In this document: piece after piece, positions 3,061 to 23,893 of the stretch
Layout of the letters: each line of letters opens with the position of its first letter
Numbering within the stretch: position 1 is the first letter of the stretch
Assembly: GCA_011364905.1 (NCBI GenBank)
Contig: RDNZ01000042.1
Coordinates: 1 to 23,893 of the forward strand
Direction: 5' to 3'
DNA length: 23,893 nucleotides
Source: Candidatus Thorarchaeota archaeon
Lineage (GTDB): Archaea > Asgardarchaeota > Thorarchaeia > Thorarchaeales > Thorarchaeaceae
Program-made: the position numbers and the translations under genes
Notes under the pieces: generated by a model
The model's database searches: none
Seen by the model: the letters and a program-made list of their open reading frames with translations, nothing else
What the model was told of the DNA's origin: nothing

Positions 3061-5262
3061 TTGAGCACTCTAAGGGAATTAGAACTTCAACAGGTTGCCC
3101 CCCGTCTGTTGGAGTTGCTCAGAAGGCAAGGACTTGCCACACTAACTAGATTCCAGTCCGTGTCGGTACAACAGGAAATCATGAGAGGAAAGAGCCAGAT
3201 TCTTGTGACATATGATTATGATGAAGCCCACTTGGTGGCTGAGATTGCCCTTCTTAATCGAATTGCGTCAGATCATAGAGCAAGAGCCTTGGTCCTATGT
3301 CCAAATCCCCATCAGGCGGAGAAACGATTTCGTTCATTGAGTCAGAAATGTTACCGATTGGGTATTGAGGCATCTGAGATTATTCGTAGAAGGACCGCAA
3401 CAAGAGCGTCAGCAGGCTCTGGTAGGGTTATAGTTTCAACCTTTAGAGCTCTGGATATCGCTGCACGGGTGAATCCGGACATTCTGAATGGGGTTTCGTA
3501 CGTGCTTGTCGATCGACTTGACCTGATAGGACAGCCGGGGATAGGAGCACGTCTTGAAACAGTTCTTGTGACTCTATTGGGTCGAGCTGATATCCAATAT
3601 GTGGCAATCTGTCCGCCCCTTGATGATGTAGATGATCTAGGCACATGGCTGGATGCTGAAATTGTGAGAGATCCGAAACCGGATGTAAAACTGATTTGTA
3701 GTGTGAAGACCTTTGAAGATTCAGATGACTCTCTCTCTGGACTCACAGAGTTTGTAACCCATCGACAAGGGCAAGTGATGATTCTTTGTGCAAACATCCC
3801 CAGTTGTGAGGAGCTCGCGCTGCAACTCGCTGGAATAGAGAAGGGCAAGATGGCAATGGCCGTGGATCTCAAGTTGGCTCCGGAATACCGTGACGACCTT
3901 AGGCTGCTCTCACACGAAATCAAAGAAAAATACCTTCGATGCAAAACCACAGTCGATCTGGCAAAGGTGATACCGAAAGGGGTGGGATTTATTCATGAAG
4001 GAGTTGCAACCGTACAGAGAAGAACAGTTTCAGAGGCCTGGGAGGATGGGCTTCTGCCAATCCTGGTAATGCCCACACGTTTTGCTATTGCAAGTGGACT
4101 AAGAGCCACGGTTGTGTTCCTGATGGGCGTATTCATGCAGGAGTTCGGAGAGGAGACCTCTCAAGATGACGCAGTCGCCATGCTCTCAGAGTGGCAACTG
4201 AGCGATGTGCTTGAAGCAGCAGGAAGAAGGGGAATTGACAATGAGGCGTTTGGCATAGTTGTTGTTGACAATGAATCAGAAAGATTGCGAGTGATTGCTA
4301 AGTACTTTCAGAAGGACCCGAAGGGAAACCTACAGCCCAGACGCGGCGAAGTAGATACTATTATGGATGAAACAGAGAATATTCAGGATTTAGTGTTACA
4401 CCAACTTTGTGGAAACGAGGAGAGGGGAGAAGATCCATTCTCAGTGATTGATCGTACATTCTGGGGGAGCAGCAGCCTAGTGACAGATATTAGTCAGGCA
4501 GAACCTCAAGATAAACAGGCAGTTGAGAGACTGCTGACACTGCGTTCTACTCGGACCACCCTTCTAAGAGCCAAAGAGATCCCTGATAAAAGCGTGAAAC
4601 TCGTTTCTGTCAGACCAGACAAGATAGAGGGCCTTGTGCATAGTGGAAGCAGAGAGATCTGGCACTATACGACATTACGAGCCAAAGAAGGTGTTTCATG
4701 CTCTTGCGAGTCATGGAAATATCAAGGTATTAGAAGACACAGGCTCTGCAAACATCTGATAAAATTCTCAAGGTATGCCCTCAACGAGAGAGAAACCGAA
4801 CCCTACGCTGCAGGAGTGATAATGCAAGCACTTAGAGGGCTTGAAGTGTTTGATGAACTAGAGGCGGATCGACTCATAGTTCGCAATAAGGAGGAAACAC
4901 GCTGTACGGACCTTGGAAAGGATGTTGCATTTCTCGGCGTTCCGGTGAAAGATGCCAAGAGGGTGATGAAGGCTATTGCTGATGAGAAGAGCGATTTGAA
5001 GACGATTCTGAGGAATGTTGTGCTAGCCAAGACAACCATTCCAAAGGGAGTTGTAAATCGTGTCCTGAGTAAATTACCAGCAAAGAATATCGAAGAAATC
5101 GTCTGTGAGGAAGACATGCCAGGAATTGTGGAGAATTGTCTCGAGGAACTAGAGTATGTCAACTCAATCTTGTTGAAGCTTTTGGATTCCAAACATAGAG
5201 CAAGGACAGAGTGTGAGAAGCTCGAAGAGGATTTACTTTCAATTTTAGAGTCCATGAGGTAA
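3061..5262 (+). CDS. Hel308/Ski2-like SF2 helicase derivative, apparently ATPase-inactive, with an inserted SWIM zinc finger
   Basis: Hel308-like layout (LTRFQ Q-motif, GARLE, WLDA, GVGFIHEG, RTFW, CTDLG) with degenerate motifs I, II, III and VI; CSC-x13-CKH at 4699-4755; TTG start. Confidence 0.82.
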   Translation: MSTLRELELQQVAPRLLELLRRQGLATLTRFQSVSVQQEIMRGKSQILVTYDYDEAHLVAEIALLNRIASDHRARALVLCPNPHQAEKRFRSLSQKCYRLGIEASEIIRRRTATRASAGSGRVIVSTFRALDIAARVNPDILNGVSYVLVDRLDLIGQPGIGARLETVLVTLLGRADIQYVAICPPLDDVDDLGTWLDAEIVRDPKPDVKLICSVKTFEDSDDSLSGLTEFVTHRQGQVMILCANIPSCEELALQLAGIEKGKMAMAVDLKLAPEYRDDLRLLSHEIKEKYLRCKTTVDLAKVIPKGVGFIHEGVATVQRRTVSEAWEDGLLPILVMPTRFAIASGLRATVVFLMGVFMQEFGEETSQDDAVAMLSEWQLSDVLEAAGRRGIDNEAFGIVVVDNESERLRVIAKYFQKDPKGNLQPRRGEVDTIMDETENIQDLVLHQLCGNEERGEDPFSVIDRTFWGSSSLVTDISQAEPQDKQAVERLLTLRSTRTTLLRAKEIPDKSVKLVSVRPDKIEGLVHSGSREIWHYTTLRAKEGVSCSCESWKYQGIRRHRLCKHLIKFSRYALNERETEPYAAGVIMQALRGLEVFDELEADRLIVRNKEETRCTDLGKDVAFLGVPVKDAKRVMKAIADEKSDLKTILRNVVLAKTTIPKGVVNRVLSKLPAKNIEEIVCEEDMPGIVENCLEELEYVNSILLKLLDSKHRARTECEKLEEDLLSILESMR

Positions 5263-21892: not shown

Positions 21893-22002
21893 GGTAATCA
21901 CCTTTGTTCATGAATATGGATTACAGTTCGAAGAAAAGACCGAGTATTATAATTGAGTGTCAACCTTTATCACAGCTGTAACGCAAAAAGTCGGTGATTG
22001 TA

Positions 22003-23893
22003 ATGCCTGCGGCAAGGAAGGAGGATGACGACCTCGCAAATCTGAGAGAACAACTCAAATCTCTCAGCAATCGATATGCCATCGAGATTCTACAAGTATT
22101 GAGCCCTCGAGCAGGTGAGTTTGTGCCTACGCTTGGATGGGATAACATAGTGGAGGGTATGTTAGCCCTAGGTGGCATAAAGAAACCTTCATCCAGACCC
22201 AAAGGAGAGAGAACTGGGGACCAAATAGAGTATGAGTCCCTTCGGCAAAGCCTGATGTCCGGAGGAACCATCTATGAAACAATGAATAAACTCATTCGCT
22301 CTGGATTTGTTATTTCAACTGGAGACAAAGGGCGAAAACAGAGAGGATTCATGATCACGCATGATGGAAGGCTTGCGTTAGTAGCCATTGGAAAACTGAG
22401 CGGCCCTATCGGAACAAGAACAGATGTTCAGAGAGCAGCTAAGATTCTCTTGAAGCATAAGAATTTCGTGAGCTTGCTTCCGGCTCAAGACAAGTTTGTA
22501 CAGGAGATTGGAGATGTAGAAGGTAATCTGGTGATACAGATGCCTCCCGGATCTGGAAAGACGTTTCTCGCAATGATAATCATCCTGCTAAGACTCCAGA
22601 AAGGAGTCAGATGTCTCTATCTCAGTCCCTATACATCTCTAAGTAGACAAATCGTTGAAGAATATGGTACACTTCTCAAGGAATTGGGATACTCCGTCGT
22701 TCGGCACGACGGGCTTAGTAAAGCCACAGACTCCGACCTTGAAACAGGCAATCTGATTATAGCAATGTACGAAACATTTTCCTCTGCAATCTTGGAGAAG
22801 AAGAAATGGACTGAGAATTTGGGACTTGCAGTCGTAGATGAACTCACCGAACTTGATTCCAGTGCAGCCAATGATCCACAGTCTCTAGGAACTGATCGTA
22901 GTACGAGGTTGGATTGCATCATTACCCTCTTGAAGGAGCATTCACAGATAGTAACACTCTCTTCGCGTTTTGGAGAAACTGAAGAGGTTGCTAATTGGCT
23001 CAACGCACAAGTGTTCAGACCAAGCGTTCGTCTTGTGCCTGATGAGTTCATTGTGAGTAAGGTCGATGACAAGTTCGAGATAGTAAGTAGTGATAGAACC
23101 CAACGTGCAAGCTCAACTAGGAAGGACGTACTTGATGCAGTGATGGACCACCTTGAAGACTATCAAAACAAGTCAATACTAATTGTTGTCGGCTCTCGAT
23201 ACCGGTCTCAGAATGTGGCCAGGCGCTTAGCAAGGAACTACACAAGAGAAGTCCCACCAGATGTGGTGGATAGAATCATAGGTCTTGGAGAGAGACTCCC
23301 TTTGAACCATAGGCTCGCAGATGTGCTAGAGTTTGGAACTGCATTTCATCATTCAGGATTAGATGCTGGTGTTCGCGAGCGACTAGAAAAGGAGATCAGA
23401 AACAGGACAATTAGAACTGTTGTATCAACAACTGGAATCACACAAGGGATTAGTTTTCCATTTGACTGTGTGATAATACTCCTCAACCAGAACCTCTACT
23501 ACCTTGAAACAAGGGCACGATATCTTCAGGTTGCTGGTAGAATTGGTGAGAATCATTTAGCTCAATTCGGAGGGAGAGTCTACCTTGTCTTTGAGGGACC
23601 CTACAGTACCATGCCGGACTCGCTCGTGATGGAGGAGAAACTACTCCATGGACCTCTCAAGCCTCTTTGTCCTGGCATTGTTTACCCAAGTCTAGCTATT
23701 AGCATAATCACAAGGCGCGCTGTTAATGGAAGGAAATTCACACGGGACCAACTAGAGTCCAACTTCCTTGATTTTGTAAATGCCACTTTCAGAGGAACAA
23801 TAGACAATGACTATAGTTCAGGAATGAGGAGATTCTTCAAGACGCTTTTCAGTTGGCTCGTGAAACAAAACGTGTTCGTGGGAGCAGAGAATG
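22003..23893 (+). CDS. wHTH-fused Hel308/Ski2-like SF2 helicase (3' partial, at least 630 aa; not in the ORF track)
   Basis: Manual translation is open from ATG 22003 (GGTGA SD at 21993-21997) to the window end: LLPAQ, MPPGSGKT, YLSPYTSL, VVDELT, TLSSR, NWLNA, AFHHSGL, STTGITQGISFP, QVAGRIGE. Confidence 0.88.
   Translation, partial: MPAARKEDDDLANLREQLKSLSNRYAIEILQVLSPRAGEFVPTLGWDNIVEGMLALGGIKKPSSRPKGERTGDQIEYESLRQSLMSGGTIYETMNKLIRSGFVISTGDKGRKQRGFMITHDGRLALVAIGKLSGPIGTRTDVQRAAKILLKHKNFVSLLPAQDKFVQEIGDVEGNLVIQMPPGSGKTFLAMIIILLRLQKGVRCLYLSPYTSLSRQIVEEYGTLLKELGYSVVRHDGLSKATDSDLETGNLIIAMYETFSSAILEKKKWTENLGLAVVDELTELDSSAANDPQSLGTDRSTRLDCIITLLKEHSQIVTLSSRFGETEEVANWLNAQVFRPSVRLVPDEFIVSKVDDKFEIVSSDRTQRASSTRKDVLDAVMDHLEDYQNKSILIVVGSRYRSQNVARRLARNYTREVPPDVVDRIIGLGERLPLNHRLADVLEFGTAFHHSGLDAGVRERLEKEIRNRTIRTVVSTTGITQGISFPFDCVIILLNQNLYYLETRARYLQVAGRIGENHLAQFGGRVYLVFEGPYSTMPDSLVMEEKLLHGPLKPLCPGIVYPSLAISIITRRAVNGRKFTRDQLESNFLDFVNATFRGTIDNDYSSGMRRFFKTLFSWLVKQNVFVGAEN

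Follow-up and report, generated by a model that had tools for sequence, protein, structure and literature searches.

Can a helicase that has lost its catalytic motifs still be a working protein and, if so, what would it do? The question is raised by a gene at positions 3061–5262 (forward strand) of contig RDNZ01000042.1 from a Thorarchaeota genome (GTDB family Thorarchaeaceae), of which 23,893 nt were analysed (henceforth referred to as the window). The gene is a complete coding sequence of 733 amino acids plus stop with a TTG start, and an earlier note, made from the letters of the DNA, had described its product as a Hel308-like helicase devoid of ATPase residues, with a SWIM zinc finger lodged in its winged-helix domain. 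We find that the protein is a pseudo-enzyme, derived from a Ski2-like helicase and equipped with a zinc module of a known type, and we are highly confident that it is a selected, motor-dead SWIM-Hel308-like protein (henceforth referred to as the pseudo-helicase).

Alignment with intact relatives confirmed each of the altered motifs that had been read from the sequence (TYDYDEA, DRLD, CPP and DVLEAAGR). The former motif I or Walker A (residues 50–57, TYDYDEAH, positions 3208–3231) reads TYDYDEA against P-S/T-x-S-G-K-T in the intact relatives, so that Gly-Lys-Thr has become Glu-Ala-His/Tyr. Motif II or Walker B (residues 151–154, positions 3511–3522) is DRLD rather than DExH/Q, with Arg at the place of the catalytic Glu, and motif III (residues 184–186, positions 3610–3618) is CPP where the relatives have SAT. 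In the second RecA-like domain R246 of motif IV is replaced by Ile, motif IVa is FIHEGV against FHHAGL, and motif V is TRFAIASGLRAT against TxTLAAGxNxPAR; within it TxTLAAGxNxPA has turned into TRFAIASGLRA, the changes including T338 to Pro and N346 to Gly. Motif VI (residues 382–390, positions 4204–4230) is DVLEAAGRR against QxLGRAGRP, having lost the Gln and the first Arg. What has been retained is Q32 of the Q-motif, P81 of motif Ia, T127 of motif Ic, D151, G388 and R389. By this alignment, the residues that canonically bind ATP and catalyse its hydrolysis are missing from the protein.

The degenerate motifs are themselves conserved. Among 117 aligned orthologues motif I takes the form T[YH]DY[DNGE]EA[YHF], and E55 and A56, which stand at the positions of the invariant Gly and Lys of active relatives, are invariant; DRLD is present in 110 of the 117, and [CST]PP at motif III in 112. 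Such near-invariance of the replacements indicates that the residues of the former ATP site are under selection in their own right. A six-frame search over 400 genomes of the phylum recovered full-length orthologues in 82 of the 85 other genomes of the family (83/86 with the query genome) and in all 16 genera, at 46–100% identity and more than 700 bits, without an internal stop, a few matches being fragments at contig ends. The best match outside the GTDB family has 25% identity or less. Among the close orthologues there was none with an intact Walker A or B and none with a frameshift.

For same-genus orthologue pairs with unsaturated dS, the ratio of nonsynonymous to synonymous substitution rates (dN/dS, Nei-Gojobori) was 0.04–0.09, and by domain it ran from 0.045 to 0.10 (first RecA-like domain 0.09, second 0.08, winged-helix insert 0.07, SWIM core 0.045). 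A metagenomic copy (P0002) is 97% identical to the query. Compared with the genome G339, the dead copy is 81% identical and the intact paralogue of the same genome (see below) 56%; compared with G313, both are 54% identical. The dead copy is thus conserved as much as, or more than, its intact counterpart. The loss of every catalytic motif could in principle mark a decaying gene, a recent pseudogene still open by chance. Low dN/dS, open full-length frames in 83/86 genomes across the 16 genera and near-fixed replacement motifs exclude it, however, and we give decay practically no weight. The motor-dead state predates the divergence of the 16 genera of the family and has been kept fixed by strong purifying selection, in agreement with the earlier note, which had described the frame as uninterrupted.

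Conserved replacement residues, together with the retention of Q32, D151, G388 and R389, might instead speak for an NTPase or translocase that works with non-canonical residues. Such an enzyme would have to do without the Gly, Lys and Thr of the P-loop (now E-A-H/Y), with an Arg for the Walker B Glu, and without motif III and the Gln and first Arg of motif VI, and we know of no SF2 enzyme that works without the P-loop, the Walker B Glu and the residues of motifs III and VI. We regard this explanation as very improbable.

Although the motor is gone, the architecture around it is that of Hel308. A structural model was built with AlphaFold2 (AF2) from a 131-sequence alignment, and reached a mean predicted local distance difference test score (pLDDT) of 87.9 and a predicted template modelling score (pTM) of 0.82; a single-sequence AF2 prediction (pLDDT 34.7) was set aside. 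The model keeps the four-domain Hel308 ring of two RecA-like domains, winged helix and ratchet, and together with the motif alignment it supports a Hel308 fold without ATPase residues. The first RecA-like domain (residues 1–205, positions 3061–3675), which holds Q32 and aligns to Hjm/Hel308, has a pLDDT of about 90 or more; the second (residues 206–430, positions 3676–4350) is the one with altered motifs IV, IVa and V. By alignment and model, the winged-helix domain comes in two parts, the first ending in RTFW (residues 431–471, positions 4351–4473) and the second comprising the LEADRLI...CTDLG element (residues 596–628, positions 4846–4944), whose L600, T616 and G619 match Hel308. A ratchet-type helical domain 4 (residues 629–733, positions 4945–5259) closes the protein, which has no helix-hairpin-helix domain 5: the model aligns to Hjm residues 1–658 of 720 and ends there, and a Pfam scan gave no HHH_5 match in the query while finding it in 5 long relatives. 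The 159 model residues that remain unaligned to Hjm roughly equal the winged-helix insert plus loops.

That insert, of about 125 amino acids (residues 472–595, positions 4474–4845), is a gap in canonical Hel308, located precisely at the junction of the first winged-helix helix (...TFW) with the L..L...gLI...T.LG element. Both the alignment and the model thus place the SWIM finger inside the winged-helix domain, as had been proposed. In the model the insert consists of a linker, two helices, a four-strand sheet and three SWIM helices, with pLDDT 83–94 across residues 500–560, and the CxC pair lies at a strand end and the CxH pair at a helix start, matching the expectation for SWIM. The signature itself (PF04434) is C547-x-C549-x13-C563-x-H565 (positions 4699–4755). 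Its four ligands are conserved in 115 of the 117 orthologues, so that the finger, like the motif loss, holds across the family, and they are invariant in 41/41 members of the wider SWIM-Hel308-like family. The two exceptions (P0058 and P0088, each on a contig of 21,173 bp and apparently from one Thorarchaeota metagenome assembly) share a 36-residue deletion that takes out the CxC half of the finger; it may be genuine or may stem from an error of assembly. Invariant stretches near the finger read KIEGLV..GSRE.WHY and GVSCSCESWKYQGIR.HRLCKH, and the SWIM loop WKYQGIRRHRLCKH is near-invariant and strongly basic (K553, R558, R559, H560, R561 and K564).

Family models see this protein only dimly. 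Against NCBIfam NF040935 (Hel308) it scores 71.1 bits, compared with a family cut-off of 1200; Hel308-type models match it weakly and over residues 10–420 only (PDB 2zj2, Hjm, E 1e-17), the Pfam DEAD match lies below the gathering score, and PF04434 reaches 16.7 bits for a gathering cut-off of 19.6. Even among the relatives PF04434 matches just 9 of 41 at E ≤ 0.01 (best E 2e-6). A profile of the insert searched against the PDB sequences gave no match at E ≤ 10, hence no detectable similarity to solved structures, and a search of the ESM Atlas with the insert alone returned no usable match. Public records label members of the family 'hypothetical protein' or 'DEAD/DEAH box helicase'.

Where does this combination come from? 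The earlier note had described the SWIM finger for the dead protein alone, but the finger is no peculiarity of it. An exhaustive HMMER search retrieved many proteins of 700–990 amino acids, at 20–25% identity to the query, in which GK[ST] is intact and a CxC...CxH occupies the corresponding position. Named members of the family come from Hod-/Promethearchaeota, from Thor- and Heimdallarchaeota, from Hermod-, Odin-, Baldr- and Ranarchaeia and from Jordarchaeum, and include a protein of the cultured Loki-type Promethearchaeum syntrophicum (QEE16306.1, annotated 'DEAD/DEAH box helicase'); one is encoded in the very genome of the query. Domain order, the site of the SWIM finger and the invariant CxC...CxH are the same as in the pseudo-helicase, but most of these helicases keep GKT, DExH/Q, SAT and QxxGRAGRP, which the pseudo-helicase does not. 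In the alignment all clade members carry the insertion at the same winged-helix site, and in both trees computed (52 and 23 rows) the SWIM-bearing proteins form one clade apart from canonical Hel308, with a support of 100 in the Shimodaira-Hasegawa-like approximate likelihood ratio test (SH-aLRT). Canonical Hel308 was also found in 4/4 Asgard genomes where it was looked for. The SWIM insertion goes back to the ancestor of a large Asgard clade of Hel308-like proteins, most of them with intact motifs.

This clade seems to have escaped description. A survey of archaeal Ski2-like helicases distinguishes Hel308-, ASH- and Brr2-type groups and leaves a SWIM group unmentioned (PMC10946056), and searches of the full-text literature for SWIM with Hel308, with Asgard helicases or with archaeal Ski2-like proteins found nothing on such an architecture. 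Within the literature searched, then, we found neither a characterised protein nor a paper with this architecture, in line with what the earlier note had stated, and the clade is, to that extent, undescribed.

Within the clade, the dead copies sit on a very long stem (2.2–2.7 changes per site) and group with the Hod-, Odin- and Ranarchaeial copies rather than with the intact copies of Thorarchaeota, with SH-aLRT supports of 88 in the 52-row and 98 in the 23-row tree. A recent duplication of the intact Thorarchaeotal copy inside the family was considered and rejected, with caveats, on two grounds. Forcing the dead and intact Thorarchaeotal copies together in the 23-row set cost 37.4 log-likelihood units (approximately unbiased (AU) topology test, p 0.013), a result to be read with the long branches in mind and with the tested group having been named after the tree was seen. 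The second ground is an independent character, the SWIM spacer. Dead copies and Hod/Odin copies have in common a 13-residue spacer and the motif C-x-C-E-x-W-[KR]-[FY]...L-C-K-H, whereas in the intact Thorarchaeotal copies the spacer is 10 residues long and differs in sequence; a copy from genome G310 (f31) has the same spacer and W-K-F motif as the former but ends in L-C-E-H.

The nearest relatives in both trees (P0131, P0134, P0135, P0138 and P0143, from Hod-, Odin- and Ranarchaeia) share the spacer and motif of the dead copies and already deviate at the motor, with motif II reading DETY, EECD or DDAQ, motif III SSN, SAN or SGK, and motif VI GRAGN or SRAGK. Most copies of this kind still have GK[ST], but P0143, an Odinarchaeial protein of 593 amino acids, is without Walker A. 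In both genomes checked, one Hod-type and one Odin-type (loci L015 and L017), the eroded copy is the sole SWIM copy; the neighbours of these Hod- and Odin-type copies are unrelated metabolic genes and give no functional lead. Given that the motifs of these relatives already depart from the consensus, erosion of the ATPase site is a tendency of the sub-branch with the Thorarchaeotal protein as its end point, and the aligned motifs indicate that it occurred more than once there. As to how Thorarchaeota came to have two copies, they may have inherited two old paralogues or gained the second by transfer.

The intact copy of the query genome is a SWIM-Hel308-like protein of 726 amino acids (G000:C25:118836-121013; L044 6834-9014) with the motifs APTGSGKT, DEVQ, SAT and QMLGRAGRP and a CSC-x10-CMH finger. 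It belongs to a tightly packed cluster on the reverse strand (G000:C25:112000-128500; L044 1898-16250), in which several genes overlap start to stop. The first half of the cluster encodes RadA (356 amino acids), an XPD-like helicase (645 amino acids), a 783-amino-acid protein without assignment and the SWIM helicase; the second half encodes a 560-amino-acid protein without assignment, an AAA-like protein (218 amino acids), a RadB-like protein (239 amino acids) and a FEN1/XPG nuclease. This cluster is kept in another genus of the family (G313) and, in part, in two other Asgard families (G311 and G117). The intact paralogue was detected in 57/86 family genomes (20/23 of the high-quality ones), against 83/86 for the dead copy. 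Within genera its occurrence is patchy, for example 7/17 and 2/7, which suggests a region that is more variable or harder to assemble.

The pairing of a dead and an intact copy invites the explanation that the pseudo-helicase acts in trans, as a partner without catalysis of its own, on an active Hel308-like helicase, either the SWIM paralogue or canonical Hel308, which it would regulate or anchor much as the inactive C-terminal cassette of Brr2 regulates the N-terminal one. We judge this unlikely. The dead and intact genes are unlinked, the intact paralogue has the narrower distribution just given and is missing from 3/23 high-quality genomes that keep the dead copy, and the inactive cassette of Brr2 itself keeps its P-loop and still binds nucleotide, unlike the pseudo-helicase. 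The comparison with Brr2, drawn already in the earlier note, is a loose one. Brr2 joins its two cassettes in a single chain that also has Sec63 (HhH + FN3) units and lacks a SWIM finger, while the pseudo-helicase is a single cassette on a gene of its own, without a P-loop and without a Pfam match to Sec63 or FN3. The partner that had been suggested was another one, the helicase gene found near the end of the window (noted at 22003; the gene starts at 21994). It runs off the window end (21994–23892, forward strand). Its DEAD/ResIII core is intact (Pfam E 2e-18), its matches to Hel308 models are weak (105–130 bits), and it carries an N-terminal extension of about 150 amino acids. As a specific partner it was set aside, there being no link beyond the shared 24-kb window; the SWIM-bearing paralogue on contig C25 is the closer candidate.

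The surroundings of the dead copy are of a different nature. The gene lies between a divergent PAC2 gene and sucC-sucD. In the window, positions 438–21490 encode an RsmB-like and a Nip7-like PUA protein, PAC2, sucC/sucD, a 421-amino-acid beta-CASP nuclease, a NusA-like protein, TruD, a geranylgeranyl reductase, Pus10, KsgA/RsmA, an FKBP, a proteasome beta subunit and FttA (aCPSF1), in other words a housekeeping block rich in genes for RNA modification, RNA processing and the proteasome. The order RsmB, PUA, PAC2, pseudo-helicase, sucC and sucD was found in 12/12 sampled genomes from 11 of the 16 genera. By positional orthology, no neighbour from the window lies near the SWIM helicases of other lineages, and no gene of the C25 cluster lies near the dead copy. 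The TTG start (3061–3063) is shared by 9/9 same-genus orthologues examined (L047-L054). A TATA-like AT-rich stretch, ataatatactata, was seen about 45–55 nt upstream of the TTG, within the 262 bp that separate the gene from the divergent PAC2.

Such a neighbourhood could be taken to mean that the pseudo-helicase, like other Ski2-like proteins, takes part in ribosome biogenesis or RNA surveillance, binding RNA without the use of ATP, since RsmB, the Nip7-like PUA protein, TruD, Pus10, KsgA, two beta-CASP nucleases including FttA and the NusA-like protein are all close by and the gene order is so stable. However, as synteny in the family extends over the entire block, adjacency says little of the function of any one member, and the genes directly next to the pseudo-helicase encode PAC2 and succinyl-CoA synthetase. 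The intact SWIM relatives are encoded alongside RadA, XPD and FEN1, and the nearest characterised relatives, Hel308/Hjm and POLQ, act on DNA. A role in RNA metabolism therefore seems rather doubtful to us, and the context of the active relatives favours recombination or repair over RNA surveillance.

The explanation that we prefer, with a confidence slightly better than even for the whole of it, is that the pseudo-helicase is a non-catalytic, ATP-independent binding adaptor of the SWIM-Hel308-like kind, probably in recombination or repair. It would neither bind nor hydrolyse ATP in the canonical way, and its basic SWIM loop and fixed RecA cleft may serve as docking surfaces for nucleic acid, a protein partner or both. 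The former ATP cleft contains D52 and E55, both acidic and invariant, as well as the arginines R152 and R389, newly gained or retained; if these residues pair, they may lock the RecA domains in one state. Recombination or repair is the most likely pathway because the intact relatives lie in clusters with RadA, RadA paralogues, XPD and FEN1, and because the SWIM finger of Shu2/SWS1 docks Rad51 paralogues. For the dead copy itself the link to repair and recombination is a weak inference, and an adaptor role in DNA recombination or repair in particular is put forward tentatively.

Several observations weigh against this explanation. The dead copy lies outside the repair cluster, and its own block gives no specific link or at most a weak hint towards RNA. 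The difference in distribution between the two copies (57/86 against 83/86) disfavours an obligate heterodimer with the intact paralogue. Strand binding by the second RecA-like domain is not assured either, given that residues at nucleic-acid contacts have changed there (R246 to Ile, T338 to Pro and N346 to Gly); nucleic-acid binding, if any, may instead rely on the first RecA-like domain, the winged helix with its SWIM finger, and the ratchet.

Comparison with known systems helps to delimit the adaptor that we propose. With Hel308/Hjm (PDB 2zj2, 2va8 and 2p6r) it has in common the fold of two RecA-like domains, winged helix and ratchet, but it differs in the absence of ATPase motifs, the SWIM insert in the winged helix and the missing C-terminal helix-hairpin-helix domain. 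An insertion in the winged helix is not in itself new to Ski2-like proteins, as Mtr4 and Ski2 carry an arch/KOW accessory module inserted in the winged helix of their core (PMC10946056); the pseudo-helicase resembles them in this respect, although the inserted fold is a different one, SWIM rather than arch/KOW. Shu2/SWS1 (ZSWIM7) presents the same CxCxnCxH signature on a beta-sheet with helices that docks RecA-fold Rad51 paralogues, and in the case of Shu2 the SWIM domain contacts the Rad51 paralogue Shu1 (PMC5727457), but these are small stand-alone proteins, whereas the finger described here is part of a large Hel308-like protein. By analogy one may imagine that the winged-helix SWIM finger of the Asgard branch docks RadA-type recombinase paralogues in the manner of Shu2/SWS1, and that the Thorarchaeotal lineage would then have turned the helicase into a motor-less regulator of recombination, a free-standing analogue of the inactive Brr2/ASCC3 cassette; we offer this as a speculation that has rather little chance of being right.

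Pseudo-enzymes that retain a helicase fold have been found mostly in eukaryotes, one example being the second cassette of Brr2. The pseudo-helicase is a clean prokaryotic case that has stayed fixed for as long as its Asgard family has existed, and its intact sister family is available for comparison; at least two genomes sampled from the family, that of the query among them, allow the dead and the intact form to be compared within a single genome. Of greater weight, perhaps, is the finding that the clade of SWIM-bearing Hel308-like proteins is present in most Asgard lineages and is encoded, in several of them, together with RadA, RadA paralogues, XPD and FEN1. If it is true that its SWIM finger contacts RecA-fold paralogues as in the Shu complex, the clade would bear on the origin of the control of recombination in eukaryotes.

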